64,000 nt of DNA from Candidatus Moraniibacteriota bacterium (GCA_049303905.1 JBAQNP010000011.1:2020-66019); one strand, 5' to 3'; counted from the first letter of the stretch, positions 3,594 through 47,505 are shown. Numbers and translations are program-made. The notes: a model not told the origin generated them from the letters alone.

Positions 3594-3608
3594 ATCACTT
3601 AGTTATGT

Positions 3609-3668
3609 TTATTATAGTGATATTATACCACTCTATATATTTTTGGCAACTCCTCTGCTGTGGATAAC
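3609..3668 (-). promoter_or_regulatory. conserved promoter cassette: DnaA box GTTATCCACA, -35 TTGCCA, 16-nt spacer, extended -10 TGGTATAAT (minus strand)
   Basis: Minus-strand read gTTATCCACAgcagaggagTTGCCAaaaatatatagagTGgTATAAT. The ~60-bp cassette is nearly identical at 10398-10448 and 47452-47505. Confidence 0.55.
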
Positions 3669-3703
3669 TTCTCATTTCCAAAAAAGTGCTCCTGAACAAA
3701 AAA

Positions 3704-4459
3704 TTATTTTTCCACTTCCTTTACTGCCTGAATATAGGTGCAGTAGTCACATTCTTTTGAATATTTTGGAATTTTCGAACTCATCAGGCATTTCTTGGCG
3801 TCAATTAGAGCGCCTTCCACCCAACTGTCGTCCCCCACATAGGGAATGACTTTAACATTAAACTCCAATTTTCCATCAAAAGCCTCCTTGTCCTTGTCGC
3901 CGTTGCAATAAACAAAATATCCGGTGGTGGAAACTTTGAAGCCATTTTTGCGAAAAAGCCATTGATACATTTCCATTTGTCTTTTATAACCAATTTGCCA
4001 ATCGGCGTCCAAGCTCACTTCTCCATTTTTGGAAGTCGCCTTATAATCCACAATCAAAAGTTCGCCTTTCGGATTCACCCAAACATCATCTACTCCACCC
4101 GTGAATAATAGATTAGTTTTTGGATGCAGATATTGAATTCCTCTTCTCAAGGAATCTCGCCACTGATCCATTCGTTCGTCTTGAAACGGCACAGCGTCAA
4201 TTCCATATTCTTTCATCAAAGGATGAGTAGTTTCATTTGCCCTATGCACATCAAATTCTTTTTTTAGTAGTGCATCCACCGCTGAATTTAGATTAAACGG
4301 AAACCCCGGTGGCTGCCCAACTCCCAAACGACGATCCAAATAGAAACATCGAGGACAATTCAAAAACAGATCCAACTTAGACCGACTAATCCGAAAAGGC
4401 TCTTTTGATTTGGGATCAAAGAGATTTCTAATTCTTTTTGCTTTATAATATTCAGACAT
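3704..4459 (-). CDS. PD-(D/E)XK nuclease superfamily protein with four Cys (Cas4/RecB-nuclease-like, DUF83-like)
   Basis: GGVDDVW ... ELLIVDYKATSK gives D ... (D/E)xK. N-terminal CPRC and C-terminal CDYC cysteine pairs. Confidence 0.6.
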   Translation of the reverse strand: MSEYYKAKRIRNLFDPKSKEPFRISRSKLDLFLNCPRCFYLDRRLGVGQPPGFPFNLNSAVDALLKKEFDVHRANETTHPLMKEYGIDAVPFQDERMDQWRDSLRRGIQYLHPKTNLLFTGGVDDVWVNPKGELLIVDYKATSKNGEVSLDADWQIGYKRQMEMYQWLFRKNGFKVSTTGYFVYCNGDKDKEAFDGKLEFNVKVIPYVGDDSWVEGALIDAKKCLMSSKIPKYSKECDYCTYIQAVKEVEK

Positions 4460-4670
4460 AATTATTTTTTGAAAAAAGTGTTACTTAACATGTTACTGAA
4501 CAAAAATTTATTTTTGAAATATAAAAAGATGCTCATGCATAATTAGAAGAAAATTACTTTTTTTAGATTGTGTTATTTTTTATTCTAGCATTATCTTAAG
4601 AAAATAAAAACTAGCTAATCAAAGCTAGTTTATAATTAAACATTTAAAATATGCTTGCATGCCTTTAAAA

Positions 4671-5069
4671 TCAACTTTTTGAAATAATAGTGATTTTAAA
4701 ATCTGCCGGCTCTTCGATAGTGCCCGTCAAAAAAGACACTACTTGATCTGGTGTTGTTTGGGATTGAAGTAAATTTATCATCATAAAACTAGGTGGCAAT
4801 AAATCACAAGAATACAAAACTTTTGTATCTTCAAGATATTTTTCAATTTCAGGATAAGTAGTTGATTGATTATAACCATTGGAAGTAATGTATATAACGA
4901 AAAATTCATCTTGACTGATTTCTTGCGAAGTTTTAGATTGAACATTTGCCGATGATGAATCACAAACATAAAATTGCCCACCATCATTAAAACTTCCAGT
5001 ATGCACTTCTAGAACAACCCCGTCAACATCCCTAAGGGTTGATTCATTATTTTTTTCTAAATCTATCAT
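4671..5069 (-). CDS. hypothetical protein
   Basis: 132-aa ORF, no recognisable motif. Confidence 0.4.
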   Translation of the reverse strand: MIDLEKNNESTLRDVDGVVLEVHTGSFNDGGQFYVCDSSSANVQSKTSQEISQDEFFVIYITSNGYNQSTTYPEIEKYLEDTKVLYSCDLLPPSFMMINLLQSQTTPDQVVSFLTGTIEEPADFKITIISKS

Positions 5070-5203
5070 ATTATTTTTTTCACTCTCCTACTCCAGGTTT
5101 CCCATTGGGTTTGGCAGAATGAATTATTAATTTATTAAATATTTTGCTTTCTATTATAACGCTATCAAAAAAAATCAGTCAATTTTCGTAATTTAAAAAT
5201 AAA

Positions 5204-5950
5204 CTATTTTAATTTTGCTATTTCTTTGAGCCTACCAACAACATCACTATTGTAAATTGGCTCATATTTACTAACGATCTCATTAAACAATATGGTTGTT
5301 GGTATTGAGTTTATGGTTAGATTAACCCCAATATTAATATTTTTCGGTATTGGGTCTAAAAAAGAACTCCTTTGCTTATCGCTAATATTTCCGATAGTTA
5401 TTGAACTACTCGTACTAGATTGAGGTTCTGACGAAAAGTTATTTATTTTTTGAATAAAAGGAGATAATTGTTGATTAACTTGTTCTTTAGCTTGATTTTT
5501 AATATCATCATGAATTCTTGAATCGAAATTAATATCTGAAACCATTTTAATTATTGAATCTAAATATTCGCCCGTAGAATATAAGTCACTTATTTTATCT
5601 AAATTTTCAAATGGCATTTCTTCTATAAAATAATGCATATTATTAGCCCAACTATTTGTAGCGATTATTTTTTTAGTAAATTTAAAATGACCATGTTCTT
5701 TGTAATCAGAAATAATTTTTTCTGCTCTCTTAATTTCTTGTAAAATCGTCTTCGCAGCATCTTTTTTGTTATCGATTTTTTGAACTATATAAAGAACAAT
5801 TGCAACTATACCAACTATTAAAGTAACAAGCCAACTCAAAAAAACAGAGTTGGCAAATTTTTCATATTTTTGATAGATGAAATATAATAAACTAATAGCT
5901 ATGCCTAAAACTAACACTACCGTTGAAATTAAATTCTTATTTTTAAACAT
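5204..5950 (-). CDS. membrane-anchored hypothetical protein (2 N-terminal TM helices)
   Basis: 248-aa ORF; N-terminal LISTVVLVLGIAISLLYFIY and LVTLIVGIVAIVLYIV hydrophobic helices. Confidence 0.45.
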   Translation of the reverse strand: MFKNKNLISTVVLVLGIAISLLYFIYQKYEKFANSVFLSWLVTLIVGIVAIVLYIVQKIDNKKDAAKTILQEIKRAEKIISDYKEHGHFKFTKKIIATNSWANNMHYFIEEMPFENLDKISDLYSTGEYLDSIIKMVSDINFDSRIHDDIKNQAKEQVNQQLSPFIQKINNFSSEPQSSTSSSITIGNISDKQRSSFLDPIPKNINIGVNLTINSIPTTILFNEIVSKYEPIYNSDVVGRLKEIAKLK

Positions 5951-6017
5951 AATTTTATTTCCACCCCCTACTTAATCATCCTCCACACAATTTGTTACCG
6001 TGAAGGATACTGAAAAT

Positions 6018-6836
6018 TTATTTTTTACTTTTTTTCAACAATTTTTTCTTTTCTTTTTTCAATTCTTTGATATGTTTTTCAGTCGGTAATTCCTCTGGCA
6101 GAGTTCCGCCAATATCTTTGATAGTTTGTCGAACTTTTCCACCAATCATAAAGTGCGTTTGTGATGCATCACGATCACCTCGAATATTATCTTTTTTGAT
6201 TTTCTCGTCAGTTTGCGTAATTCGAAAAAGATTTGCCGCTAATTCAGTTGTTCCTGCCCTATCCAACAATTCACCTTTCTTGATACTTTTTCTATTTTCT
6301 ATTTCAGCCAACGACATTCCATACAATCCTTTATATCCTGCATCATTGAATGATCCAAATTTTGTAACTCCCGCTTTTTTTGCAGTTTTGAAAAGTTTTT
6401 TATTGTGATCTGAAACTTCACCTCGAATAAACAATCTTTTATCCACCCCTGAAAGTCCTTGGAATATTTCTTGTTTTCTGGTTTGAATCGCAAAGTAGGT
6501 TTGAGCCATAGCAATCTCCTGTTTTTTAGGATCACCATTTTGTGCAACCAAATAACAAGCATACCTATCCAATTTCCAGTCCCTCACTTCTCTTACTGTA
6601 TTTGAACCAATTTCGACCATTTTACTAAGTGCGGTAAAATGGTTATCCACAGCCTGACCGCTATTGATACATGCTTTAGCCGCCCTAGCTATAACCTCCT
6701 CGGCATTCTGCCATTTTTCATATCCCAAAACCAACATCAATTCGCGTGCTTCCCAATATTCAACACCACTCCTATCAACTTTTTTAATGTTTTCAAAATT
6801 TTTATTCAACGAATTTATGATTAACTCTTTTGTCAT
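6018..6836 (-). CDS. dinD: DinD family protein, paralog 2
   Basis: IGSNTVREVRDWKLDRYACYLVAQNGDPKKQEIAMAQTYFAIQTRKQE is the same conserved core as 2799..3593. Confidence 0.7.
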   Translation of the reverse strand: MTKELIINSLNKNFENIKKVDRSGVEYWEARELMLVLGYEKWQNAEEVIARAAKACINSGQAVDNHFTALSKMVEIGSNTVREVRDWKLDRYACYLVAQNGDPKKQEIAMAQTYFAIQTRKQEIFQGLSGVDKRLFIRGEVSDHNKKLFKTAKKAGVTKFGSFNDAGYKGLYGMSLAEIENRKSIKKGELLDRAGTTELAANLFRITQTDEKIKKDNIRGDRDASQTHFMIGGKVRQTIKDIGGTLPEELPTEKHIKELKKEKKKLLKKSKK

Positions 6837-6853
6837 ATTGACTTATTTTATTT

Positions 6854-7879
6854 TTATTTCCACCCCTGCCCAATTGCTCTCCAAATAATTTGTTCTTGAG
6901 GAACATTAATCATACCTTGCGGAGTTTGTTGTTGAACATTTTGTTGAACTTTTTTAAATTCCATATTAATTTCAAAAAAATTGGAAATTTCAGCACTTTC
7001 TACAAAAGCAATTTTATAACCTTTGCGATTCATTGCTTGATTTTCTCCCAATTCCAATTCGGGATTCCAAACTTGGCGAGTTTTCATTTCTTCAGCATAA
7101 TCTTCATAAATTTCTGTCATAAGATTTGCAAGTTCTGTGTCTGCGTTAACTACAGTTTTTATCCCCAAATCTTCCCTGGCTTCTTTTCTACCAATAAAAT
7201 ATTGATGGGAATATAATTTTTCTGTTAGAAATTCAATTATTTTTTCAATTTCTTCATCTTTCATTTTTTCTTTATGACTCTTGAGTAATCTTTTGGCAAG
7301 AATTTTTATCAACTCATGTGTTCGATTTACATTTCCCAAAGCCAATGGATGAATTGAGGGAGTAGCTTCTACAAATTTATTGAAAATTTTAACTAATTCC
7401 TCATCACCTTTTATTCCAAATTTATTTTTTGCCAAATCAAAGTAACTCATCACTTCTTCCACAGAAATCGGAATGCGATTTTGTGGATTTTTTGGATCAA
7501 TAGGATTGAAAACATTGGCGGTTGATGGATCAATCGGCGAAAGTTCACTCATATCACTCATCACAATTTCATCAGCTCCAAGTGCAATCATTGTCGCCGC
7601 ACTATGTGCTTTGTAAGGAATAATAACAGAAAACTTTTCGCAATATTCACGAATCATAGAAACTAAACGCCACGGAGTCATTGTGTCTCCACCAGCACTA
7701 TATAATATTAAATCTATTTTTTCTTGTTTTCCAATGCGTCGCAATTGTGAACTGATAATTGGAATAATATCCATTGCTACTCGAGCATTCACTGGTCCTT
7801 GTCGATCACTAGTTGCATAAGTTATAACCTTTGAACCTCTCTTGGTTTCAATTTTTTTGATCAAATCTTTCGTATTCAT
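6854..7879 (-). CDS. ClpP/crotonase-fold serine protease (SDH / S49-like family)
   Basis: LILYSAGGDTMTPWRLVSMIREY...AHSAATMIALGADEIVMSDMSELSPIDPS has SppA/SDH-proteinase-like nucleophile-serine context. 17 nt upstream of dinD paralog 2, same strand. Confidence 0.55.
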   Translation of the reverse strand: MNTKDLIKKIETKRGSKVITYATSDRQGPVNARVAMDIIPIISSQLRRIGKQEKIDLILYSAGGDTMTPWRLVSMIREYCEKFSVIIPYKAHSAATMIALGADEIVMSDMSELSPIDPSTANVFNPIDPKNPQNRIPISVEEVMSYFDLAKNKFGIKGDEELVKIFNKFVEATPSIHPLALGNVNRTHELIKILAKRLLKSHKEKMKDEEIEKIIEFLTEKLYSHQYFIGRKEAREDLGIKTVVNADTELANLMTEIYEDYAEEMKTRQVWNPELELGENQAMNRKGYKIAFVESAEISNFFEINMEFKKVQQNVQQQTPQGMINVPQEQIIWRAIGQGWK

Positions 7880-8012
7880 AAAATTATTAAAGTTTTATTT
7901 AAAATTAAAAAATTACTCTAGTGATAGTATAACATTCTCATAAAAAATGTCAATTTTTTCATTGGCCATTTTAAAAAGGTTTATTTTACCCCATATTTTT
8001 AGAGACTTTTAT

Positions 8013-8507
8013 TTAAATTAAGATAATACTTTTTTCATCTTTCAATTCAGCTCCTATGACATTATCAAATAGTGATTCTTTAAGCCATTTATTTTTCTGT
8101 GTAAAATTATCGAAAGCTTCTTTAACATCATTCCCTTTTCCCCACCCTAATATTTGGCAATTCTCAACTTCTGGAAAATTATCCTCGGATCCTGGATAAA
8201 AAGTATAACCCTCGGTGGTATAGAAAATAAAATTTTTTATAGCTTTTATGTTGGTGATTTTTTCCAAAAATCCCTTCGACATTAATTTCAAAGTTTCTTC
8301 ATCTAAATTTTGTAAATTTTCCCACAATTCAAAAGTTTGATATTTTTCATCTTCTTCAATATTTTCCCACTCATCAGCCTCGATTTCTACAAAATCATCA
8401 TCTTCATCAGAATATTCTTTGCACATCACCAAAAATGGAAAATAGAAATCAGGATTTTCATCCAAGTATTTTAATATTTTTATCGCCAACTCTCTTGAAA
8501 TTTTCAT
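8013..8507 (-). CDS. acidic hypothetical protein, possible DpnD-like partner of the DpnI-like gene
   Basis: 164 aa, Asp/Glu-rich. Lies immediately downstream of the DpnI homolog, as dpnD does in the pneumococcal DpnI cassette (positional inference only). Confidence 0.4.
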   Translation of the reverse strand: MKISRELAIKILKYLDENPDFYFPFLVMCKEYSDEDDDFVEIEADEWENIEEDEKYQTFELWENLQNLDEETLKLMSKGFLEKITNIKAIKNFIFYTTEGYTFYPGSEDNFPEVENCQILGWGKGNDVKEAFDNFTQKNKWLKESLFDNVIGAELKDEKSIILI

Positions 8508-8571
8508 AAAATTGAACAGAAATTAATTTTTATTTCTGATCAATTTTTGATCGAATTTGAATTATTGTCAA

Positions 8572-9336
8572 CTAGCTCAATTTATATTTTCCTGGCTCAA
8601 TAAATTTTAAATATCCCTTGTCTCGCAAAAATTGCAATTGTTGACGAATTTTTGGCTTAATATTGTTATTTTCTGGATGAATAATAGCTAAATTTTTTTC
8701 AAAAGCATAGATATCTTGCAGAGAAAATTCTTTTTTACCCAAAGATTCAATACAATTCATAATATCCAAAATCCAACCTTTCAAATCTGTCCTTTTTATT
8801 TTTTTCAAAAAAGCAGTTTTTTGCCATTTTTTCAAAACTTCTTTTTTGGAAATTTCAGTTCCATTTTCTACATAAAAAATCTTGCCTGAATTGGGAATTT
8901 TATAAAATAAGATATTTGAACCAATCCAACCAGCTCTGCGTGCATTTTCTGACAAAGCTTTTCTTTTTTCAATAATTTCAGGAACAAAAAAATATTTTGG
9001 AACAATAAAAAAATCATTAACGGAAAATGTGGCTAAATATCCCATAAAAAAGAAATGTGGATTTTGTGGCGATTCTATTCTTTTTATTATCTGCGAATAT
9101 GCACCCGCTGAAACCTTTTTGCCAATTTTTCCTTTTTTGGATTTTAATTCAAAATCTTCTGAACATTTTTCACAATAAAAATCCGCTACAGGCTTATTGT
9201 TAGTATAATTTTCAATTTTATCTCCGCAGTTCGGACAATAAATTTCACTCCCAACCCACGCTTCAGTCAAAACTCTTATTTTTTGAGAATTACTATTATA
9301 TTTTTCCGCTAATTTTAAATCAAAAAATGTGTTCAT
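8572..9336 (-). CDS. dpnC: DpnI-like methyl-directed (Gm6ATC) type IIM restriction endonuclease
   Basis: 254 aa, the same length as DpnI. Blocks YNSNSQKIRVLTEAWV, YCPNCG, NKPVADFYCEKCSEDFELKSKKG, RRAGWIGSNI and IRQQLQFLRDKGYLKF match my recollection of S. pneumoniae DpnI almost residue-for-residue. Confidence 0.8.
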   Translation of the reverse strand: MNTFFDLKLAEKYNSNSQKIRVLTEAWVGSEIYCPNCGDKIENYTNNKPVADFYCEKCSEDFELKSKKGKIGKKVSAGAYSQIIKRIESPQNPHFFFMGYLATFSVNDFFIVPKYFFVPEIIEKRKALSENARRAGWIGSNILFYKIPNSGKIFYVENGTEISKKEVLKKWQKTAFLKKIKRTDLKGWILDIMNCIESLGKKEFSLQDIYAFEKNLAIIHPENNNIKPKIRQQLQFLRDKGYLKFIEPGKYKLS

Positions 9337-9413
9337 ATTTTCACCTATTTTAAGCCATTTTATACAGCCACTTGACTTTTACTTATTTATGGCTTAAAAT
9401 AAAAGATAAGAAA

Positions 9414-9519
9414 TCGGTATATGTGCGGATAGCCATGGCCGGTTTTTTTGTTGTATTTTTTCGAAAAAAGTGTACTATTATATATAAGGAGTCGGTATAT
9501 GTGCGGATAGCCATGGCCG
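9414..9519. repeat. two copies of a 28-nt direct repeat TCGGTATATGTGCGGATAGCCATGGCCG (9414-9441, 9492-9519), each followed by a T-run, with palindromic core GCCATGGC
   Basis: Exact 28/28 identity. Located between the DUF3800 stop and the DpnI-like start. A plus-strand TTGACT-N17-TAAAAT lies just upstream (9368-9400). Confidence 0.6.
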
Positions 9520-9528
9520 ACTTTTTTA

Positions 9529-10269
9529 TTATACAAGTATCTCGAAAATGCCAAGTCCCTTATCCATTTTTCTCTCAATTAGTCTTTTCATCATTCTCTC
9601 AACTTTTGTAAGTTTTTTCAGTTTACCCATTTTCATTTCATATACCATATCAGCCATCAAGGCCAGACTATCTGCTATTTGTATATCATCATCAAGATTT
9701 AATTTATTTACCAAACTTAATGATGTAATTTTTCCACGATAATCTGAACCGTTTATGCCCTCTGAAGGAATTCCGACTCCTTGTAATCTAGTGTGAGCCT
9801 CAATTAAATATTTATCTTGAGCTGGATCTGATTCAACAATAATTTTTCCATAAATCTTATCCTTCAAATGTTTTTTAACAAATTCTTCTAATATTTTATG
9901 ATAAGATTTTCTAAGTATTGCAATTTCATTCCATCCTATCTTCCTAGCCTTACCTTTATCGGTTATCACAAATGCAGGAGATATTTTATCTGAATTTAAA
10001 ATAGTCGTGAATTCTGACCAAAATTGAATCTCCTTCTCTCTGTCTTCTCTAAAAAAAGCAAAGGGTCCCTTTCTGCGGATCATATCCCTGCAATGAAATA
10101 CGATTTCCTCATCATCAAAATGTTTCTTTTTTAATTTGCACATTGCCCTATTAAGCTGGGCTTTAAAACTTTCTGGAATAATTATTCCAGACAAAATAAA
10201 ATTTTTTGATTTATGCTTCAAACTAGCCTTTCCCGTTTCATCGATAGCTAAAATTTTATATTTTTTCAT
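9529..10269 (-). CDS. DUF3800 family protein
   Basis: N-terminal KILAIDETGKAS matches the DUF3800 signature (YIDESG-like start); 246 aa. Confidence 0.55.
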   Translation of the reverse strand: MKKYKILAIDETGKASLKHKSKNFILSGIIIPESFKAQLNRAMCKLKKKHFDDEEIVFHCRDMIRRKGPFAFFREDREKEIQFWSEFTTILNSDKISPAFVITDKGKARKIGWNEIAILRKSYHKILEEFVKKHLKDKIYGKIIVESDPAQDKYLIEAHTRLQGVGIPSEGINGSDYRGKITSLSLVNKLNLDDDIQIADSLALMADMVYEMKMGKLKKLTKVERMMKRLIERKMDKGLGIFEILV

Positions 10270-10397
10270 AATTTTCCGATGGATCTACTTTTATATTCGA
10301 CAAAAAAAACCGCAAATGAATTGGATGAACATTTATTTTAGTTGCAATGTTTTGTATTGTTTCCTGTGTCATTTTTATTTTCTATTTTAAAACTCAA

Positions 10398-10448
10398 TGA
10401 TATTATATCACTCTGCATAATTTTGGCAAGTCTTGGATTGTGGATAAC
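10398..10448 (-). promoter_or_regulatory. conserved promoter cassette with DnaA box (copy 2)
   Basis: Minus-strand read gTTATCCACAatccaagacTTGCCAaaattatgcagagTGaTATAAT; aligns with 3609-3668 and 47452-47505. Confidence 0.55.
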
Positions 10449-10940
10449 CTTACTTCCCGCCTCATCGGCGGACAGGTTTCCAATCACTAATTACAAAATT
10501 CTCCCTATTAAAAAATTTAAATTTTATTGGCACTTCAAGCATAATTTTAGAAAAATAACTAAACTTTTTATATAAACTAAATCCCTGTTTTTGTTTATGT
10601 TGTCAACTACAATATAAACTAACTTTTAAAAAGGCTTATTAATTTTCAACTCACTAATTACAAAATTCTTCCTACTAAATATCGCTTCGCTATTAAACAG
10701 AGTAAACCCCAACTTTTTTCACCCCCACCCCGAATTAATTATGCTATTCTCACTCTTTAATTCTACCCCCATCCCCCCTTTTCGTAAAGAAAAAGCCCGG
10801 ATCGGACTTTTTCTTTTTTTTGCGAATTTTTCTAATTTTCAACCCCAATTTTCCAAACACCTTTTTCCAAAGTTTTCACGCTTTTGTCAATATAATCGTG
10901 AAAATGTGGTTAAAATTAGTGCATTTTCACGGTTTTGACT

Positions 10941-11714: not shown

Positions 11715-12380
11715 TTATAGCAAGCCCTCACACTTCAAACTCAAAAAAGAATTTTCACTCACAATCACATGATCCGTTATTTCAATCCCAAGTATGTTTC
11801 CCGCTTCTACTAAGCGCTTGGTGATTTCCAAATCATCTTGCGAAGGATTCACGTCCCCTGACGGATGGTTGTGGCAAATTATTATCTGCGCAGCACAGTG
11901 GCGAATAGCCGGTTCGAAAACTTCCCGCGGATGAATTAAATTGGCGTTGAGAATTCCGACAGAGATAATTTCCCGTTGGATTTTTTGATTGCGCGTGTCC
12001 AAGTAGAAAACTACGAAATGTTCTTTCTTATTATCACGAATATCTTTCAAATTTTCCCACGTATCACGTGGGGACAAAATCAACTCAGTTTTTTTGCCAT
12101 TGAGAAATCTCCTGCCCAATTCAAAACAAGCTAAAATCTCCGCCGATTTGACCGGGCCAAGTCCGAAAGTTTTTTTGAGCTCAGAAAAACTCGCCTGAGA
12201 AATTCCCTCTCGGCCGAATTTTCGCAGAATTTTTTTAGAAATTTCAACCACACTCAAATCTTTTGTTCCACTTCGAAGAATTATCGCCAGAAGTTCCGAA
12301 TCAGACAGTTTCCCTGGACCATATTTTTCCATTTTTTCCCGCGGTCGATCGATACGCGGAATATCTTTTATTCTTGACAT
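11715..12380 (-). CDS. radC: RadC / UPF0758 JAB-domain protein
   Basis: JAMM motif HNHPSG and the SDSELLAIILRSGT helix-hairpin-helix region. Promoter TTGCAA-N16-TGGTATAAT ends 6 nt before the ATG, so likely leaderless. Confidence 0.85.
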   Translation of the reverse strand: MSRIKDIPRIDRPREKMEKYGPGKLSDSELLAIILRSGTKDLSVVEISKKILRKFGREGISQASFSELKKTFGLGPVKSAEILACFELGRRFLNGKKTELILSPRDTWENLKDIRDNKKEHFVVFYLDTRNQKIQREIISVGILNANLIHPREVFEPAIRHCAAQIIICHNHPSGDVNPSQDDLEITKRLVEAGNILGIEITDHVIVSENSFLSLKCEGLL

Positions 12381-12418
12381 AATGATATTATACCACTAAA
12401 AAATATTTTTGCAATATC

Positions 12419-21033: not shown

Positions 21034-21105
21034 TCCGCGATAGCTCAATGGTAGAGCAGTTGACTGTTAATCAATTGGTTCCAGGTTCGAGTCCTGGTCG
21101 CGGAG
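21034..21105 (+). tRNA. tRNA-Asn (anticodon GTT)
   Basis: Acceptor TCCGCGA/TCGCGGA, D arm GCTCAATGGTAGAGC, anticodon loop CTGTTAA, T arm CCAGGTTCGAGTCCTGG, discriminator G. Confidence 0.85.
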
Positions 21106-22698
21106 CAGAACTGGAGAACTAGAGTATAAAAGCTCTAGTTTTTCTTTATCTTCGGGCAAATTCAGAGGTTCGAACTTTCTGAATATCGTATTTAGCTCGG
21201 AAGATATTTTTTCTAGGCCAGCGAACTTATTATCGGCTCTAATATTGAGTTTTTTCTCAGAAAGTGAGAGGTTCGAACCAATCGCCCTAAATATCTCTTT
21301 TCGTTTTTCTTCATCGCCATTTCTGAACTTTTCAAGTGAGTCCTTGGCAAGCTCCAGCAATTCTTTCGTTTCTTCCAGCTGGTCTATCCAATAGGTTGAA
21401 TTGTCCTCACAAGCGTCCAAACTGGCCTTCAGCCGTCCTTTTTCTCGTGTTAGCTCATCTTTCTTCGTTGCGAATTCACCCTCGCTTAATTCGCCATTTA
21501 TTCGCATATCTAGGAGTCTAGCTAACTTGTTATCATAAGCTTCGCATTCCTTTTTTCGGTTTTCTAATGTTTGTTTCCTTTCCTCAATTTCTTCCTTGTT
21601 TTCCTTTCTGAGTTTTTCAATCGCCCATTCTAGGAATGTGGGGTGGATCTTTATTCTTTTTAGGATTCCAATGATTTCTTCTTCAAACTTCCTTTCCTCG
21701 ACTACTTTTTGATCGCATTTTGGATCTAACCTGTGACTACAGTGGTAGTAGATGTAATAATGAGTTTTGCCATTCTTGCATTTCTTAACTTTATGTTCAG
21801 CTACTATCGATGCTTCACATATTCCGCATCTGATCGCTCCTGTATATTTGAAACTGTATTTTCGTGGTCTGGTCGTTCCTCGTCGACCGAGTATCATTTG
21901 AGTCTTTTCGAATTCTGCTTGTGTGATCATCGGTTCATGCTTGCCTTTATGCCATTGGCCACTATCGGATGGAAATTCATACCAGCCGTAGTAGAAAGGG
22001 TTATTCATCATGGCGTACCATGAGCTGATGGAAACTTTTTGGCCATGCTTATTTGTAAAGTTCCATTCAGCAGTTCCTTTCCTGTATGCTTCTGGCGGAG
22101 TGAGTTTTCCTGAAGCGACCATTTTCAACATCTTTTGAATCGTTTCAAATCTTTCAGGATCTTTGATGATTTCTTTTTCGCCTTTGAGCTTGATGGGATT
22201 GTGTCTATATCCGAGTGGCGATCCATTAGGATACCACCCTCGCTCCGCTTTGTTTCGCAGGCCTCGCTTTGTGTCAGTGCTTAGATCGCGAATGAATTGG
22301 TTAGCCATTCCTTGCTCTACAGCCATCACTAGAACATTATCTTCAGGGTAATAACTTCTCCCGAATGTAAAAATATGTTTTATCATCTTACCCTGTAGCA
22401 TCCAACTTATCGTACCGCTATCTACAGGATTTCTAGACAGACGATTAAGTTTCCAACAAAGTATTCCATCAGCTTCGCCCCGTTTTATTTTTTCGAACAT
22501 TTCGTTAAAAACTATCCTCCCAGGCTCTTTGGCTGATTTGGATTCATGCATAATTTCAGATACATTCAACCCGTTTTCTTTTGCGAGTCTTTGTAACTCT
22601 TCAATTTGCGAGTCAATCGATGCCATTTGTCGATCCTCGCTTTCAGATGATTTTCGAGCGTAAAGAATGTACTTAGTTGCTCTTGTTTCTTGGTTCAT
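21067..22698 (-). CDS. large serine recombinase (resolvase/invertase-type catalytic domain + recombinase domain + zinc ribbon + coiled coil)
   Basis: N-terminal YARKSSESEDRQMASIDSQ (catalytic Ser region), zinc ribbon CGICEAS...YYHCSHR, long coiled coil. The annotated 3' end reads through the tRNA-Asn 3' half (last ~13 codons), so the true stop may be earlier or it overlaps att. Confidence 0.85.
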   Translation of the reverse strand: MNQETRATKYILYARKSSESEDRQMASIDSQIEELQRLAKENGLNVSEIMHESKSAKEPGRIVFNEMFEKIKRGEADGILCWKLNRLSRNPVDSGTISWMLQGKMIKHIFTFGRSYYPEDNVLVMAVEQGMANQFIRDLSTDTKRGLRNKAERGWYPNGSPLGYRHNPIKLKGEKEIIKDPERFETIQKMLKMVASGKLTPPEAYRKGTAEWNFTNKHGQKVSISSWYAMMNNPFYYGWYEFPSDSGQWHKGKHEPMITQAEFEKTQMILGRRGTTRPRKYSFKYTGAIRCGICEASIVAEHKVKKCKNGKTHYYIYYHCSHRLDPKCDQKVVEERKFEEEIIGILKRIKIHPTFLEWAIEKLRKENKEEIEERKQTLENRKKECEAYDNKLARLLDMRINGELSEGEFATKKDELTREKGRLKASLDACEDNSTYWIDQLEETKELLELAKDSLEKFRNGDEEKRKEIFRAIGSNLSLSEKKLNIRADNKFAGLEKISSELNTIFRKFEPLNLPEDKEKLELLYSSSPVLLRDQDSNLEPID

Positions 22699-32827: not shown

Positions 32828-32907
32828 ATTGGAAGCTGGCATTGAGATATATGTGGTATTTATTATTAAGCATAGGTTCGCATCATTTTTAGCTCGCGGA
32901 GCCTTTA

Positions 32908-32944
32908 AAAAATTACGTAATTAATTACGTAATTTTATTTTGAA
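32908..32944. terminator. bidirectional terminator: A-run, 24-bp perfect palindrome AATTACGTAATTAATTACGTAATT, T-run
   Basis: The identical 24-mer recurs at 58468-58491 in the same A/T-run context. Confidence 0.55.
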
Positions 32945-33035: not shown

Positions 33036-34091
33036 ATGGAAAAATTAACTAATCGTCAAAACTCAATACTAGAATTCATAAGAAATCAGGGGCAAGCCAG
33101 CACTAGGGAAATTAAGAAATACCAAGAACTAAAAACGGGAACTCTAAATAGAATAACAATCATAAGAGATCTTGATGTTTTAATAACGAAAAAACTAATT
33201 AAAAAAACAGGACAAGGAAGAAGCGTTTCTTATAGCATGATAATTGAAAATCCCCTACTGTCTTTTTATGATATTGAAAAATATTTTAAACAATCAATAA
33301 AAGAAAGAAATTCTCGAAAAAACTTCAACTTCGATATCTTTAAAAATTTTGATAATTCCATATTTTCAAAAGAAGAATTATCTAATCTTGATAAACTGAA
33401 TGATACCTACCGAAAAAGCGTAGCAAGGCTTTCCCCAACTATTTTAAAAAAGGAGTTTGAAAGACTAACTATCGAATTAAGTTGGAAATCATCTCAAATA
33501 GAAGGAAACACATATTCGTTAATAGAAACGGAAATTTTAATAACAGAAAATCAAGAGGCTTCCGGTCACACAAAATCAGAAACTCAAATGATCTTAAATC
33601 ATAAAAAAGCTCTGGATTATATTATTAATAATCCTAAAATTTTCAAAGAATTAACTCTTTCCAAAATCGAAGACTTGCACAAGCTACTCATCTTCGATCT
33701 TGGAGTTGAAAAAAATATTAGAAAAACATCAGTCGGAATAACTGGAACTAATTACAAACCGCTAGACAACCAATTTCAAATAAAAGAAGCCTTGCATGAA
33801 ATGCTTTCGATTATTAATGCTAAAAATCTACATCCCCTGCTAAAAGCACTCTCTGCAATCGCCTTAATTTCCTATACCCAGCCCTTTGAAGATGGAAACA
33901 AAAGAACTGCTAGAATTTTAGGCAATGCTATTTTATTAGCCCAGGAATATTGCCCACTATCCTACAGAGATGTTGATAAAAATGACTACAAGAAAGCGAT
34001 TTTGCTTTTTTATGAACAAAATAGTCTTTATTTACTAAAAGAAATTTTCATCCAACAATTTGAATTTGCAGTGAAGAATTATTTTGAATAA
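33036..34091 (+). CDS. Fic family protein with N-terminal HTH-like region
   Basis: Fic motif QPFEDGNKRTARILGNAILL. Confidence 0.75.
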   Translation: MEKLTNRQNSILEFIRNQGQASTREIKKYQELKTGTLNRITIIRDLDVLITKKLIKKTGQGRSVSYSMIIENPLLSFYDIEKYFKQSIKERNSRKNFNFDIFKNFDNSIFSKEELSNLDKLNDTYRKSVARLSPTILKKEFERLTIELSWKSSQIEGNTYSLIETEILITENQEASGHTKSETQMILNHKKALDYIINNPKIFKELTLSKIEDLHKLLIFDLGVEKNIRKTSVGITGTNYKPLDNQFQIKEALHEMLSIINAKNLHPLLKALSAIALISYTQPFEDGNKRTARILGNAILLAQEYCPLSYRDVDKNDYKKAILLFYEQNSLYLLKEIFIQQFEFAVKNYFE

Positions 34092-41976: not shown

Positions 41977-43428
41977 ATGGCTAAAGACGACGTCGCAGTT
42001 AGATTCAACAAAGTTTCTTTTGAATATACTCACAATAAAACCATCCTCGAAGAGGCTTCTTTTTCTATCCGCCAAGGCACCAAAATTACTATTATGGGAC
42101 AAAATGGCGCCGGGAAATCGACTATTTTGAATTTGATCACAGGGTCACTGAAAGAAGAAGATGGTTCAATCTATGTCAATCCTAGTCTCAAAATTGCTTA
42201 TGCTAAGCAAGTTATTCCAAATGAACAAATGACGCTCACTGTCAAAGAATTTTTTGCCCTTTGTTTCACTGAGAAATTATATAATCTCGATCCAAAGATT
42301 GATAAGGTTTTGGACCTTGTAAATCTAAAAGCGCCACACGACAAGATAATTAAATCTTTTTCCGGCGGACAACAAGCCCGTCTGCTTTTAGCTTCTGCTT
42401 TGATTCAAGATCCTGATCTTTTGATTCTAGATGAACCAACCAATAATTTAGACAAAGCCGGCATTGAACATCTCACGCAATTTTTGATGAATTACAATAA
42501 AACTTGTATTGTTATTTCTCATGACGCTGACTTTTTGAATTCTTTTACTGATGGCGTGCTCTATCTTGATATCTTTACCCACAAAGTTGAACAATATCTC
42601 GGCGACTACTATGTTGTGGTGGCTGAAATTGCCGATCGAATCGAAAAAGAAAAAATGAAAAACGCGCAATATGAAAAAGAAATCATCGCCAACAAAGAAA
42701 AAGCTAACTTCTTTGCTAACAAAGGTGGCAAGATGCGACTAGTAGCTCGAAAGATGCGCGACAAAGCTGAGGAGATGGAGGAAGCCAAGGTTGATGTCAG
42801 ACGTGAAGACAAAGCTATTTGTGATTTTGAAATTCCAGTCCAAGATGGACTTATTGGAGAGATAATTAATATTTCTTCACTAACTGTCATGAAAAATCAT
42901 GAACCCGAAGAAAAGAAAGTTCAAATCTCTCTCAAGAAAAAAACTCATCTGCTTCTTGCCGGACCAAATGGTATTGGTAAAAGTACCCTGCTTGAATCTC
43001 TCGCTTCCGGTCACGCTAAGGGCGCAAAAATTACTGAAGGCATTCGGGTGGGATATTACCGCCAAGATTTTTCCACACTTAATTTTGAAGACACTGTTTA
43101 TAATTCGCTTTCAGAGGTTATGCGAGAAAACAACGAAGAAAAACTCCGCTCTGTCGCTGCCGGATTTTTGATCGACAAAACAATAATCAACGCCAAAATT
43201 GGCACGCTTTCTGAAGGACAAAAAGGTCTCGTAGCTTTCGCGCGCCTCATGCTCGAAGAACCAGGACTTCTAATCCTCGACGAACCAACCAACCACATCA
43301 ACTTTCGCCACTTGCCAATCATCGCCAAAGCCCTTGATTCTTTCGAAGGCGCCATGATTCTCGTTAGCCACGTCCCCGAATTCGTCTCGCAAATTAGGAT
43401 TGATGAAGTTTTAGATTTGGAGAAATAA
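41977..43428 (+). CDS. ABC-F family ATPase (two NBDs, no TMD; EttA/ARE-like translation factor)
   Basis: Walker A GQNGAGKST and GPNGIGKST; signatures LSGGQQAR and LSEGQKGL; inter-domain linker. Confidence 0.85.
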   Translation: MAKDDVAVRFNKVSFEYTHNKTILEEASFSIRQGTKITIMGQNGAGKSTILNLITGSLKEEDGSIYVNPSLKIAYAKQVIPNEQMTLTVKEFFALCFTEKLYNLDPKIDKVLDLVNLKAPHDKIIKSFSGGQQARLLLASALIQDPDLLILDEPTNNLDKAGIEHLTQFLMNYNKTCIVISHDADFLNSFTDGVLYLDIFTHKVEQYLGDYYVVVAEIADRIEKEKMKNAQYEKEIIANKEKANFFANKGGKMRLVARKMRDKAEEMEEAKVDVRREDKAICDFEIPVQDGLIGEIINISSLTVMKNHEPEEKKVQISLKKKTHLLLAGPNGIGKSTLLESLASGHAKGAKITEGIRVGYYRQDFSTLNFEDTVYNSLSEVMRENNEEKLRSVAAGFLIDKTIINAKIGTLSEGQKGLVAFARLMLEEPGLLILDEPTNHINFRHLPIIAKALDSFEGAMILVSHVPEFVSQIRIDEVLDLEK

Positions 43429-43499
43429 TATTAAATTTTGCAAATAAAAAAGTACAGAATCAATTCTGTACTTTTTTTCTAAAATATTTTTTAATTTTC

Positions 43500-44717
43500 C
43501 TATTCCACAAAAGTCAGCGCATTTCCTTTTTTGTCGGCACGGCCGGTGCGACCGATGCGATGCACATAGTCTTCATAGGTTGCTGGCAAATCAAAATTGA
43601 TAACATGACTCACATTTGGAATGTCGAGTCCGCGGGCAGCCACGTCCGTGGCGACCAAAATTTCCACCACATTTTCTTTGAACATTTTGAGTGCTCGCTG
43701 TCGTTTGCTATGTGGTTTGTCACCGTGAATAGATTCAGTTTTAAAACCTCGACCAAGTAAACTCTTGGTAAGTTTGTCGGCACCGTGCTTGGTGCGAGTA
43801 AAAATCAAAACTTTTTCAAATTTAGCTTGGATGAGTAAATCATGGAGTGTATCTGTTTTGTCCTTGCCTTTTTCCACTCTAACAATATTTTGATCAATTT
43901 GCGCGCTTGATTCTCCGCTTTTAACAGAAATTTTCACCGGATTATTCAAGAATTTTCTGGTCAAACTTTCGATCTCAGCGCCAAAGGTTGCCGAGAAAAG
44001 CATGATCTGTCTTTGTTTTGCCACCAGTGACAAGAGCCAATTCACATCATTGATAAATCCCATATCGAGCATGCGATCAGCTTCGTCGAGCACCACACTG
44101 CTAAACTGTGAAAGATCCAAAACTTTTCTAGTGATCAAATCTTTGAGTCTGCCAGGAGTGCCAACGACTAAATTATGCCGTCTATGCATTTCCTTGATTT
44201 GTCTTCGAATATCTGCGCCTCCAACTACCACCACGGAAAAAATATTTAGTCTTTTAGCCAGCGCCATAAATTCATCTTGAATTTGAATCGCTAATTCGCG
44301 AGTCGGCGTCACAATCAAAACTTTTTCGCGCGGATTCAAAAGAATTTTATTGATCATTGGAATGAGAAAAGCCCCCGTTTTTCCGGTTCCAGTATTAGCC
44401 AAACCAATCACATCTTTTCCTGCTAAAATTTCTGGAATAGCTTGATCTTGAATCGGTGTTGGCGTGGCAAAACCACGACTTTCGATGGCGCGTTTGAGCA
44501 AAGTATGAATTTCAAGATCGCAAAAGGCATAGCGAGGCTTGAAAGCTTCCGTTGGAACAATTTCCTTGGCCTTGCAAATGAAACGACTAACGTCGATTAC
44601 ATTGCCAGTGAATCTTCTTCGGCCACTTGGACGAGAACCGCCTCGCGATCCCCCTTTTCTACCACCATGAGAACTGCCTGCGCGAGAACTTCGCGCGTTT
44701 GTTTTGTATTGCATCAT
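43500..44717 (-). CDS. DEAD-box ATP-dependent RNA helicase with RG-rich C-terminal tail
   Basis: Motifs TGTGKT, DEAD, SAT, HRIGRTGRA. Confidence 0.9.
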   Translation of the reverse strand: MMQYKTNARSSRAGSSHGGRKGGSRGGSRPSGRRRFTGNVIDVSRFICKAKEIVPTEAFKPRYAFCDLEIHTLLKRAIESRGFATPTPIQDQAIPEILAGKDVIGLANTGTGKTGAFLIPMINKILLNPREKVLIVTPTRELAIQIQDEFMALAKRLNIFSVVVVGGADIRRQIKEMHRRHNLVVGTPGRLKDLITRKVLDLSQFSSVVLDEADRMLDMGFINDVNWLLSLVAKQRQIMLFSATFGAEIESLTRKFLNNPVKISVKSGESSAQIDQNIVRVEKGKDKTDTLHDLLIQAKFEKVLIFTRTKHGADKLTKSLLGRGFKTESIHGDKPHSKRQRALKMFKENVVEILVATDVAARGLDIPNVSHVINFDLPATYEDYVHRIGRTGRADKKGNALTFVE

Positions 44718-45045
44718 TATCTAATACAGAATTACGCTTTTGATTGCGGAAAAGATATTAACGCAGTCGCCAGAAAAATATTTTACATAAAAAATTTCTA
44801 ACTACTGGTGAATCGTTGCATTTTATAATCGCTTTTGCGACGAGCATATCTTGACGCAAGCAAATGCGTAAGTCCTAAACATAAAAAATTAATTATTTTA
44901 TGTTTAGATACGTACGAAGATGTATTAACATAAAAAGTAAGTATACCTTTTCTTTTTTGTTTTGTCAAGCTAGGCTAGGCCACCCCATTCTTCTTTCCTA
45001 ATTTTTTATGCTATAATATAAAAGTAATTAACTAAAATAAATAAA

Positions 45046-45429
45046 ATGAAAAAATACGCAATATTGTTTCTTTTGCCAATTGCTCTTTTTCTTTCTGGAT
45101 GCGGAAAAAGCGTCAGCTATCCGGAGCTTTACACGCAAGAAAAATTGCCACAGTATGCTGACGCCAAACTAGTCCAAATAATTAAAGACGGACCAACACT
45201 TAAGGATGGTGTTCTTTTGCGACTTGAAAGTTCTAAGGATGTAAAAACGATTGCTACTTATTATGATGAAGAAATGAAAAAACTGGGCTGGACTATGCCA
45301 GCTGTAAACACTCCGACTGAAACCCTTTATGCCACTCAATATAATAACGGAAAAAAATATATCCAGCTCACCGTGAGTCAAATAACCGGATCTAGTCAAA
45401 CTATTTCTATCAATTTCATGGAACAGTAG
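45046..45429 (+). CDS. lipoprotein, hypothetical
   Basis: Signal + lipobox LFLSGC. Confidence 0.55.
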   Translation: MKKYAILFLLPIALFLSGCGKSVSYPELYTQEKLPQYADAKLVQIIKDGPTLKDGVLLRLESSKDVKTIATYYDEEMKKLGWTMPAVNTPTETLYATQYNNGKKYIQLTVSQITGSSQTISINFMEQ

Positions 45430-45500
45430 TCGAAAAAAATTAGTCGGGTTCAAAAAAAGACTGGGGATTCCCCAGTCTTTTAATTATCATTCTTCCAAGT

Positions 45501-46442
45501 CTAGGTGCAAGGAACACTAATAGTTTTAGTTAGGGTATTATTATCTTCCTCCTCTTCATCAACATCATCATCGACATCAGCTATTATTTTCATAACATAA
45601 GCACCCGAACATCCGTCATATTTTTCAGTGCATGACACGGTTGTGCTTTCACCAGCCTCCAATTCATCAATTTCTCCATCACAAAGCTTGAGAGCTGAAG
45701 CCCCCCAATATTCCCATTCGAAATCTTTGGCATCCGTTTGTCCTTCATTTTTTATAGTGATAGTAATTTTAAAATCTTCTCCCATTTTTGGATCATGATT
45801 AAATTCATATTTACTGATTGTTAAATCAGCTTTCTTGTGTTTAGGCGTCACTTGTTTTGTGGACGTATTATTTCCCTCGTCACTTTCACTCACATCATTT
45901 TGCGAATCAACCACAACCTTGGTGGCATAATCTGACCAGTCGGAATATGTAAATTCACATTCAACTGTGCTAGTTCCTCCTGCAGAAATCGCGCCAACTT
46001 TTTTCTTGCAAGATTGTTTGGAAGCAGTTGACCACCATTCCCAATAGGACTCAGGCGAAGCAATTTGTCCTTTGTTGCCAATGACAACCGTTACAGTAAA
46101 TTCAGATCCAACTTTTGGATCTTTGCTAAAGGAATAACTTTTCACATAGAGATCGGCTTTTTTAGTTTCTACTGGAACTGTCGGCTCGGGTTCGGTTGTG
46201 ACCGCAGGAGTGGTTGGGATGACTGAAGAACTAGAGCTAGTAGGAACATCTGAAGTTGTTTCTGTTTTTTTTGCTTCCTCTTCAACTTGAGAATTTTTCG
46301 AAACATTATAAATATAGAGAGCAGCCAAACCTACCAGCGCCACAGATAGCATCACTATGATAGTGATTAGAAATTTTTTTGAATCTTCATCTTTTTGTGG
46401 CTCTGGTTGAGAATACATATTATACCGTGGATCTTGTTCCAT
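45501..46442 (-). CDS. membrane-anchored protein with two CARDB-like domains
   Basis: Two repeats ending in the ...E.DEGNN / EEEDNN signature, KADL...NKGQ/NEGQ; one N-terminal TM helix; Thr/Pro/Ser linker. Confidence 0.55.
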   Translation of the reverse strand: MEQDPRYNMYSQPEPQKDEDSKKFLITIIVMLSVALVGLAALYIYNVSKNSQVEEEAKKTETTSDVPTSSSSSVIPTTPAVTTEPEPTVPVETKKADLYVKSYSFSKDPKVGSEFTVTVVIGNKGQIASPESYWEWWSTASKQSCKKKVGAISAGGTSTVECEFTYSDWSDYATKVVVDSQNDVSESDEGNNTSTKQVTPKHKKADLTISKYEFNHDPKMGEDFKITITIKNEGQTDAKDFEWEYWGASALKLCDGEIDELEAGESTTVSCTEKYDGCSGAYVMKIIADVDDDVDEEEEDNNTLTKTISVPCT

Positions 46443-46585
46443 ATTTTTAGATTTAATATTTATTTTTAAATATATTATTTAACACTTCTATACATTTATA
46501 TATTACCTCTTTTTTTCCAAAAAATCAAAAACCGCCGGTGATAGCGGTTTTGTTGTTTTTTAGATTGGTTTAATTTTCCATAAAT

Positions 46586-47431
46586 TTAATTCAATTTTTT
46601 CACAGATTTTTTCTTAGGCAGATAATTCTCCCCAGTCACAATTGATTTTCCAATTTTTTCTTCCAGTGCCGTTCTGGCATCTTTGGCAATTTTCCCGCCT
46701 TTTATCGCTGGAATTTTATTCTCCTCTAAACCTTTGGCTTCGTCTGTTTCTGCAATTCTTCTGGTGGAAAGTTCCGCCAAGGCGGTAAAGATTAATTCCT
46801 CTTCGCTCATATGGTCTCGTAAATTTTGTGTTTTGAGACCTTTCAAGTTTTTATGCGCTTTTACAGATAAATCACTCCACTCTTTATGAATAATATTAGT
46901 CAGAATTGCAAACTCATCTCCCTTTTTCACACCACTCTCAGACCAATAATCCGTTAATTTATTTCTAGTTTCTTGCCCGGTCATTCTTTGTTGTATCCAT
47001 TTTTCACTTCGCCCTTGTTTTTGCCAGTATTCACGACTGCGATTAAGTGCCTTTTCCGGATCACTCATTTCCTGCATTCGTTCATAACCAACCCTAGCCA
47101 ACCAAAGTTTGATTGGCTCGGCTTTTTTGCTAGGCACGGATTGGATGAGTCGCAAAATTGTTTCTGTGTTTGCCACATCAGTTTCTCTCATTTTTCCATC
47201 CTCTGCTAATAATTTCAACCGGTTACAATTTGTAACCACTTCACTTCCTTCTTTTACTAGGCGGTTTTTTAAAACCTTCCAATAATTTCTTGCTAATTGA
47301 AAATCTATCTGTTCTGTTAAAGCGGCAACGATATCAATTACCGAAAAATACCAAGTTTCTATTTTTTCGTCGTAGTGACGACGAATCTTAAAATCTTCAA
47401 AAATGACGAGTGAGTTATATTTGTTTTTCAT
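46586..47431 (-). CDS. Bro-N domain protein (phage antirepressor-like)
   Basis: N-terminal FEDFKIRRHYDEKIETWYFSVIDIVAAL resembles the Bro-N domain. Confidence 0.5.
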   Translation of the reverse strand: MKNKYNSLVIFEDFKIRRHYDEKIETWYFSVIDIVAALTEQIDFQLARNYWKVLKNRLVKEGSEVVTNCNRLKLLAEDGKMRETDVANTETILRLIQSVPSKKAEPIKLWLARVGYERMQEMSDPEKALNRSREYWQKQGRSEKWIQQRMTGQETRNKLTDYWSESGVKKGDEFAILTNIIHKEWSDLSVKAHKNLKGLKTQNLRDHMSEEELIFTALAELSTRRIAETDEAKGLEENKIPAIKGGKIAKDARTALEEKIGKSIVTGENYLPKKKSVKKLN

Positions 47432-47451
47432 AACTTTATTTAGTTTATTAT

Positions 47452-47505
47452 AATGATATTATATCACTTAGGAATAATTTTGGCAACTTTTTGGTTGTGG
47501 ATAAC
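47452..47505 (-). promoter_or_regulatory. conserved promoter cassette with DnaA box (copy 3)
   Basis: Minus-strand read gTTATCCACAaccaaaaagTTGCCAaaattattcctaagTGaTATAAT. Confidence 0.55.

Follow-up and report, generated by a model that had tools for sequence, protein, structure and literature searches.

A promoter module with a perfect DnaA-type box and a candidate LexA operator precedes lexA and exchangeable defence genes in Moranbacteria-like bacteria

We have analysed a stretch of 64,000 nucleotides from a Candidatus Moraniibacteriota bacterium (GCA_049303905.1 JBAQNP010000011.1:2020-66019), hereafter the window, in which three closely similar promoter cassettes stand ahead of unrelated accessory genes. 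Each cassette carries a perfect match to the DnaA box upstream of its -35 hexamer and a palindrome over its -10 element. We report the anatomy of this module, its conservation in related DNA, the genes that it serves and the swapping of these genes between strains. We consider it probable that the module is an SOS promoter which LexA represses and which has a DnaA site at a fixed place upstream, that is, a promoter with two regulatory inputs. With a similar degree of confidence, we propose that it belongs to an SOS-type regulon of a Moranbacteria-like lineage (Candidate Phyla Radiation, CPR, or Patescibacteria), of which lexA is the most consistent member.

The three minus-strand cassettes, which the original prediction had reported as near-identical, were recovered by direct reading and by mutual alignment of the window sites (Table 1). 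In all three, G-TTATCCACA is followed after 9-10 bp by TTGCCAAAA and, beyond a stretch that varies, by AGTG[A/G]TATAATATCA[C/T]T. As the spacers are not alike among the copies, conservation is block-wise; the likeness had been described as almost base-for-base, and this holds for the box, -35 and -10 blocks but not for the spacers, which differ. The 9-mer is indeed a perfect DnaA box, as had been claimed, with 9/9 positions matched in all three copies. The cassettes are promoters of the sigma-70 type, with TTGCCA, a spacer of 16-17 bp and the extended -10 TGnTATAAT, and transcription likely starts at a conserved purine 7 nt after the -10. In a consensus scan of the first 20 kb, promoters of this kind are among the best sigma-70-like sites (TTGCCA, 16 bp spacer, TATAAT, TG extension).

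We have observed five exact copies of TTATCCACA in the window, against 0.54 expected, and none of 100 shuffles reached this number. A window scan for the -10 block AGTGRTATAATATCAYT, allowing at most 3 mismatches, returned 5 sites (10 strand-hits) against 0.95 expected; these are the three cassettes, the radC promoter (12381-12397) and a weaker relative (7920-7936). The radC promoter has the -35 type, the -10 and the ATCAYT of the cassettes and lacks the box, as the original prediction had stated and as direct reading confirmed. Its dyad abuts the ATG, the -10 ending 7 nt before it, and the radC mRNA is therefore probably leaderless.

Table 1. Positions of the cassettes, their parts, neighbouring genes and related elements. 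Positions are those of the window unless a locus from related DNA (L followed by a number) is named.
Feature	Position	Strand	Remarks
Cassette copy 1, whole promoter module	3609-3671	-	ahead of dinD and RhuM/Fic
Copy 1, perfect DnaA-type box TTATCCACA	3659-3667	-	context GAAG-box-G; 9 bp upstream of -35
Copy 1, -35 hexamer TTGCCA	3644-3649	-	
Copy 1, 21-bp dyad, candidate LexA operator	3614-3634	-	encloses extended -10, TATAAT 3622-3627
Additional candidate operator half-site GTGATAT	3592-3598	-	overlaps dinD start codon
Cassette copy 2	10394-10448	-	box 10439-10447, -35 10424-10429, -10 10402-10407, dyad 10394-10414
Cassette copy 3	47450-47507	-	box 47496-47504, -35 47481-47486, -10 47458-47463, dyad 47450-47470
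dinD (DNA damage-inducible protein D, Bro-N domain)	2799-3593	-	first gene after copy 1; equivalog-level
RhuM + Fic/DOC gene	1796-2785	-	13 nt after dinD
38-aa open reading frame, 5' stub of D12 (Dam-type) methyltransferase gene	10256-10372	-	behind copy 2 promoter
DUF3800 gene	9529-10269	-	replacement cargo of copy 2
Bro-N family gene	46586-47431	-	behind copy 3; PADLOC candidate PDC-S13
radC promoter	12379-12414	-	-35 TTGCAA, -10 and dyad 12381-12397; without box
radC gene	11715-12380	-	
Weaker box-less relative TTGACA-16-TGTTATACTATCACT	7920-7953	-	upstream of SDH-type protease gene and second dinD
SDH-type protease gene	6854-7879		downstream of 7920-7953 promoter
Second dinD	6018-6836		equivalog-level DNA damage-inducible protein D
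Boxes of nrdR promoters	L092 10679, L094 10747, L096 10710, L098 3178, L100 4325, L101 3182		
Terminator and G-rich element	window ~46472-46605, 10752-10850; L018 2672-2733; L009 6186-6270; L028 418-520, 2190-2250		

The -10 of the cassettes lies within a palindrome, AGTGATAT-A-ATATCACT (17 bp), which the original prediction had missed. We aligned 60 unique instances, from the window and from related DNA, and judged separately the positions that are not fixed by the search pattern. These pattern-free flanks are symmetric across the 60 instances, and with them the dyad measures 21 bp, ATAGTGATAT-A-ATATCACTAT. The distance from box to dyad is 27-28 nt in 50 of them and the gap between box and -35 is 9 bp in 37, the orientation of the box being fixed. 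Since RNA polymerase imposes no symmetry downstream of the -10, the dyad looks like the site of a dimeric repressor; the conserved ATCAYT and the likely on/off control are best accounted for by this dyad and not by the DnaA box. Next to 22 of 62 cassettes there are additional GTGATA/TATCAC half-sites, whose density of 4.87 per kb is 8-fold that of the background (0.58 per kb). Fur/PerR-type boxes, of the form 7-1-7 (TGATAATnATTATCA), were considered and set aside: the ends of the dyad are alike, but its spacing is 6-1-6.

For an unbiased set, we fetched lexA loci by identity of the LexA protein and not by motif. The LexA family gave 591 matches, whose named members are Moranbacteria or Parcubacteria, and the fetched loci have the conserved synteny ftsZ-lexA-nrdR-nrdD-nrdG. 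In all seven independent lexA promoters, an exact box precedes the -35 by 9-10 bp and the dyad, 27-28 nt from the box, covers the -10, where each of the seven has GTGATATAATATCAY. Further GTGATA/TATCAC half-sites are found in most of the seven, lying downstream or else in the spacer, where they form a direct repeat of 12-nt period. The protein of the clade aligns full-length to E. coli LexA and has the cleavage site C-G, the serine in GDSM and the lysine in IKR; judged by its sequence, it is a true LexA. LexA boxes are classically recognized by their presence ahead of lexA itself (autoregulation), and the operator-like dyad is found there; for this reason we assign the dyad to LexA, as the putative operator of the clade repressor. 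Other canonical SOS genes with the module are recQ (twice) and dinD, in the window and at several loci; radC has the dyad only.

The flanks of the box, although left free by the pattern, are kept across the 60 instances (AAAG before, G after). In addition, an exact box stands without the dyad at all six nrdR-nrdD-nrdG promoters, the next promoter downstream of lexA. There the box has the AG flank seen in the cassettes, is mostly inverted and lies ~45 bp upstream of the -35; in place of the dyad there is only GTGGTATAAT, followed by NrdR-box-like repeats. These promoters also show a conserved TTTTGGCTTA after the box, then a hairpin with the -35 in its loop, ahead of the repeats. Because it is present without the dyad at nrdR-nrdDG, we regard the box as a separate site with its own reader. 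The box had been proposed to be an add-on to the promoter, and its separability is borne out in both directions, radC being without the box and the nrdR promoters having the box alone.

In 99 kb of protein-selected loci, we counted 21 exact boxes against 1.1 expected (~19-fold), and one-mismatch variants were at chance (50 against 51.2 expected). Only the perfect 9-mer is under strong selection. Isolated boxes must be perfect for a DnaA monomer to bind, and this all-or-none pattern is as expected for an isolated site bound by a monomer at high affinity. The oriC boxes R1 and R4 of E. coli share the G-box-G context. TTATCCACA fits the DnaA-box consensus TTWTNCACA. It is the consensus high-affinity DnaA box (PMC11317965). 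Moreover, the nrd genes are DnaA targets in E. coli (PMC8203912), nrdDG included by chromatin immunoprecipitation sequencing (PMC11317965), and proposed DnaA targets in B. subtilis and Caulobacter (PMC8203912, PMC11317965). The box would thus be bound by the replication initiator DnaA. We looked in the collected DNA for dnaA or oriC of the clade, for comparison of the boxes, and found only a Firmicutes dnaA (L036); L004, a candidate dnaA/oriC locus, proved to be a type IV pilus locus.

According to the model that we propose, LexA on the dyad would block the -10 and the start site, and upon DNA damage RecA-stimulated self-cleavage would remove LexA from the promoter. DnaA on the box, at about -45 to -53, would modulate the recruitment of RNA polymerase, and the output would depend on DNA damage and replication status together. 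The position of the box upstream of the core promoter is like that at nrdAB, which DnaA activates; at uvrB, recN and dinJ of E. coli, DnaA limits SOS genes. The module is a compact standard unit; accordingly, accessory genes (dinD/Bro-N, RhuM-Fic, restriction-modification, DUF3800 and NYN) stand behind it and are exchanged between strains at its edges. A broader version, which we put forward as a possibility only, would have DnaA take part obligatorily in the regulation of practically every LexA-controlled gene in Moranbacteria-like CPR bacteria, with the module, one perfect DnaA box and one LexA dyad at fixed spacing, as a two-key promoter and as a standard socket for the exchange of defence genes. 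Such a socket, often accompanied by a conserved terminator, would wire incoming defence genes to the damage and replication alarm on arrival.

We then considered the module in relatives. A scan of species-representative genomes with the pattern GTTATCCACA-N8/9-TTGCCAAAA gave 44 loci, 8 of which have the whole module including the dyad. These 8 come from two Parcubacteria-group and two Candidatus Moranbacteria metagenome-assembled genomes, with up to ~80-91% nucleotide identity to the window over matching stretches. A further 47 loci came from metagenomes, scanned for a pattern that takes in box, TTGC and dyad. The box is an exact 9/9 match in every relative examined, and the only regulon members seen without it are radC and L048:3375.

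The first genes behind 54 unique instances were collected from these motif-selected loci, and 39 distinct proteins were scanned against Pfam. Six are LexA-type repressors (Peptidase_S24, three of them also LexA_DNA_bind), accompanied by one RecA and one RecQ-like helicase. The others include Bro-N (five), RhuM (four), NYN (two) and DUF3800 (two) proteins, about 11 DNA methyltransferases together with the NgoPII and HaeIII endonucleases, and also AntA, KilA-N and GNAT proteins. The module had been presented as a promoter of accessory and defence genes; the accessory cargo is confirmed, but this cargo does not stand in isolation, being part of a clade-wide regulon with lexA, recA, recQ and dinD.

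In the window itself, the genes behind the cassettes are those that had been named, DinD/Fic, DUF3800 and Bro-N, except that the "tiny HTH-like ORF" (helix-turn-helix-like open reading frame) of copy 2 is what remains of the 5' end of a Dam-type methyltransferase gene. The RhuM-Fic gene probably shares an operon with dinD, and several of the cargo proteins match PADLOC candidate defence families.

The comparison of strains indicates how this cargo is exchanged. At the locus of the HI0933-like gene (47536-48897), L005 keeps the cassette and has a dinD-like gene in place of the Bro-N gene of the window; its homology with the window resumes at ~46523, near the conserved terminator. In L018, the same cassette and Bro-N gene adjoin tRNA-Glu, and the stretch homologous to the window has its start at precisely 47507, the edge of the box. 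Behind the counterpart of copy 2, the Dam-type methylase (323 aa) is complete in L056 and L053, and L056 has further restriction-modification genes after it (a 180-aa open reading frame, then a second methylase). The homology of L056 with the window stops at 10270, leaving the 38-aa stub, the first 28 residues of which are identical, ahead of DUF3800. A systematic pairwise comparison gave 14 pairs with shared cargo and unrelated upstream flanks, and one pair (L052, L063) with shared flank and promoter and different cargo. The units are shuffled between strains with breakpoints at the edges of the module, which supports the proposal of a portable promoter module made in the original prediction. 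Nevertheless, since conservation is block-wise and the module stands at chromosomal lexA, we attribute the maintenance of the motifs to regulation and not to mobility. Replication-coupled regulation and a portable module are not mutually exclusive, and each has some support.

Several points weigh against the two-input model. The assignments to LexA and DnaA, that is, which proteins bind and what they do, are inferred. Among four recA promoters fetched without motif selection, only one has the module (L103), and the second module-bearing recA, L055, had been chosen by the search pattern. We therefore rejected recA as a second defining member of the regulon, which is not the textbook SOS core, and we claim no canonical SOS core. 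In the 64-kb window, lexA, recA and dnaA were not found (tblastn for lexA and recA); as lexA is not in the window, its presence in this genome is assumed from close relatives. The dyad always holds the -10 in the same register, so that its conservation is partly plain promoter sequence, and the fixed spacing between box and dyad could mean that one complex reads both motifs. The published LexA motif of Patescibacteria is of the direct-repeat type, as summarized in a secondary source (PMC7739468); GTGATA-N6-GTGATA does occur in several of the lexA promoters studied here. Finally, E. coli DnaA favours paired boxes, 13 of 32 single consensus boxes being occupied in vivo (PMC11317965), and each cassette has one box.

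The most serious alternative, which we nonetheless find unlikely, is that TTATCCACA is read by a factor other than DnaA (LexA at a bipartite site, a dedicated activator or a regulator of defence islands), its identity with a DnaA box being a coincidence and the dyad either completing that site or being bound by another repressor. The fixed orientation and 27-28 nt spacing would fit such a factor, as would the conserved flanks AAAG...G, which stretch the motif past the classical 9-mer. The box is also the only motif common to the lexA and nrdR promoters here, and ribonucleotide reductase genes were reportedly counted as SOS members in the 2017 Patescibacteria SOS study of Sanchez-Osuna, Barbe and Erill. 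However, it is improbable a priori that an unrelated factor would arrive at the universal DnaA consensus in 9/9 positions. The oriC sites R1 and R4 of E. coli share its G-box-G context. In contrast to dimeric LexA sites, the box lacks symmetry and is single. It is found at nrdR in either orientation, and at -45 to -53 (about -80 at nrdR) it is poorly placed for repression; the repeated GTGATA/TATCAC half-sites of the lexA promoters suit a dimeric repressor far better. In E. coli, single consensus boxes are often unoccupied by DnaA (PMC11317965), but the conserved DnaA should bind a perfect box, whatever else does. A competence or DNA-uptake regulon in place of SOS, with the box or the dyad read by a competence regulator, would account for box and TTGCCAAAA upstream of a type IV pilin gene in L004. 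It would also agree with the dependence of CPR bacteria on DNA uptake and with the fact that recA, radC, DpnI/Dam-type restriction-modification and recombination genes are typically competence-induced in streptococci. The pilin case is a single match selected by the search pattern, though, comEC genes in the same loci have neither box nor dyad, and the most consistent member is lexA (7/7), as LexA autoregulation would have it; we hold this explanation to be very improbable.

It may also be asked whether the similarity reflects descent or recombination and not a shared regulator, the module being mainly a portable promoter (or promoter plus terminator) or a recombination anchor. The cargo swaps at the HI0933 locus, at copy 2 and in L052/L063, the 14 pairs with the same cargo and unrelated flanks, and the L018 homology that begins at the box edge all speak for portability. 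Yet box, -35 and dyad are fixed while the spacers vary, which indicates selection on binding sites and not recent copying, and at 7/7 loci, in conserved synteny, the gene behind the module is lexA, a chromosomal core gene. Portability would account for the spread and not for the motifs, and thus complements the two-input model; as a replacement for it we judge portability quite improbable. A phage origin was rejected, as the full-pattern scan of viral contigs gave 0 matches. An integron-type cassette array was rejected as well, each unit having its own promoter, with no integron integrase nearby and no attC-like repeats; the sole recombinase found is a serine recombinase (21067-22698) distant from the cassettes. 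There remains the idea of a generic strong promoter, or of the end of an insertion sequence (IS) or a repeat like a miniature inverted-repeat transposable element (MITE), that happens to hold the 9-mer. Indeed, the -35 and extended -10 are ordinary sigma-70 elements, and GTGnTATAAT is present at some housekeeping promoters too. We listed every upstream region of at least 45 nt in the window, and the box, TTGCCAAAA and ATCAYT are absent from all of the ~45 other intergenic ones, housekeeping and tRNA promoters carrying (G)TGnTATAAT at most. The cassette is therefore not a generic promoter; presence of the 60-mer upstream of most genes, which would have refuted the original prediction, is not seen. 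A repeat search found similarity among the copies over ~50-90 nt only (~60-90 nt as weighed here), with no inverted termini and no target duplications, and the window annotation has no transposase near the cassettes; the IS end or larger repeat that would have undone that prediction is not there. Rfam returned only tRNAs in the window and no structured RNA at the cassettes. We regard this last explanation as practically discounted.

Co-regulation by DnaA and LexA as such is already known from E. coli, where uvrB, recN and dinJ are co-repressed by both proteins (Wurihan et al. 2018, PMC6015884). The module resembles these promoters in having a LexA operator and a DnaA box in one promoter region, binding being predicted here. 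There the replication initiator modulates SOS output, as it would in the clade. In E. coli, however, few promoters are concerned; their boxes are several, degenerate and variable in position, and some overlap LexA boxes. Here, one perfect box, at a set distance ahead of the -35 and in one orientation, appears to be standard in nearly every regulon member. As at E. coli nrdAB and nrdDG, a high-affinity box lies just upstream of a nucleotide or DNA-metabolism promoter (6/6 at nrdR-nrdDG here), but the E. coli nrd boxes are paired and bound cooperatively (PMC8203912, PMC11317965) and those described here are single and perfect. In B. subtilis, a DnaA-mediated replication-stress response is described (Goranov et al. 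2005, as cited in PMC8203912). DnaA acts there too as a transcription factor tying replication status to DNA-metabolism and stress genes, in parallel to LexA; the two regulons occupy largely separate promoters, whereas here both sites are on one promoter.

Exchange at one locus has a parallel in the dpnI and dpnII cassettes of S. pneumoniae, which are mutually exclusive and encode methyl-dependent (DpnI) or Dam-type (DpnII-like) systems. Similarly, the window has DpnI and a methylase stub where L056 has a complete methylase system; unlike in the pneumococcus, the exchange takes place behind a conserved SOS-type promoter and the replacement is a DUF3800 gene. A LexA-controlled DNA-damage network in Patescibacteria was reportedly described by the 2017 study mentioned above (Environ Microbiol). 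It concerns the same superphylum, and in the loci fetched here lexA adjoins nrdR-nrdDG; if that study reports a GTGATA-type site, the operator is already known. In the searchable literature, we found neither a DnaA box as fixed partner of an SOS operator in CPR bacteria nor restriction-modification or defence cargo behind it.

CPR/Patescibacteria have tiny genomes with very few regulators, and the clade is not genetically manipulable. A promoter grammar that can be read from sequence would permit prediction of the genes that answer DNA damage or replication stress. Should DnaA prove to be a constant partner of LexA, what is known from a small number of promoters in E. coli would organise a whole regulon, and anti-phage and restriction genes would be coupled to replication and damage in the cell. 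Another lesson of the module is that defence genes acquired horizontally can come under regulation by insertion behind a standard promoter. Should the DnaA reading fail, the description of a Moranbacteria SOS operator and regulon remains, part of which may already be published.

Some further observations concern the box and the module. The two exact boxes of the window outside the cassettes, at 3425-3433 (minus strand) and 6643-6651 (plus strand), each fall within one of the two dinD paralogs, in one case on the sense strand (encoding V-I-H-N) and in the other on the antisense strand; one-mismatch boxes are grouped near these paralogs (3320, 4044, 6439 and 7159). The boxes within the paralogs could be chance coding or additional DnaA sites. 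In L004 (4873-4899), an unrelated Patescibacteria genome, the box and then TTGCCAAAA stand ahead of tandem type IV pilin genes, and the arrangement of box and -35 may be used more widely in the superphylum. Among pattern matches outside the clade, those in Pseudomonas are conserved coding sequence, and those in Saccharibacteria, other Patescibacteria and Bacteroidota are isolated and uninformative; all were set aside. In L028 (2857-2900), a truncated cassette that has box and TTGCCAAAA but lacks -10 and dyad runs directly into the start codon of a DpnI homologue, which looks like a recombination scar within the promoter spacer.

A second conserved intergenic element is made up of an intrinsic terminator (AAAACCGCTATCACCGGCGGTTTTT) and, after it, a promoter-like block rich in G (TTGATTTATTGGGGGAAAGGGGGTAGAAT GGAAGTGTT); in relatives, a cassette often comes directly after this element (Table 1). 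The accessory modules around tRNA-Glu are rearranged between strains (L005, L018 and L062 against window 1796-4484 and 46379-52157), the dinD/RhuM-Fic island and the block 47536-52045 beside tRNA-Glu being adjacent or reordered in relatives. In L096, a RhuM-Fic gene with the cassette variant of copy 1 sits directly upstream of lexA. Besides this fusion gene behind copy 1, the window has a second Fic-domain gene at 33036-34091.

The methyl-dependent endonuclease DpnI of the window (8572-9336) lies beside DUF3800 and the methylase stub. Between DpnI and DUF3800, there are tandem 57-nt repeats (9399-9455 and 9477-9533, 84% identical), each with a GC-rich hairpin (CCGGCCATGGCTATCCGCAC...), which may be terminators or a small repeat element. 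The serine recombinase (543 aa, Resolvase N-terminal domain) belongs to a region, 21034-22698, that overlaps the 3' side of tRNA-Asn, and the ~10 kb after it (AAA ATPase, subtilase and open reading frames of no known function) may be an integrated element. Lastly, a palindromic AT-rich element, AAAAATTACGTAATTAATTACGTAATTTT, occurs at 32906-32939 and 58464-58497 (97% identical), with a weaker third copy at 43445-43478, and is probably a shared bidirectional terminator.

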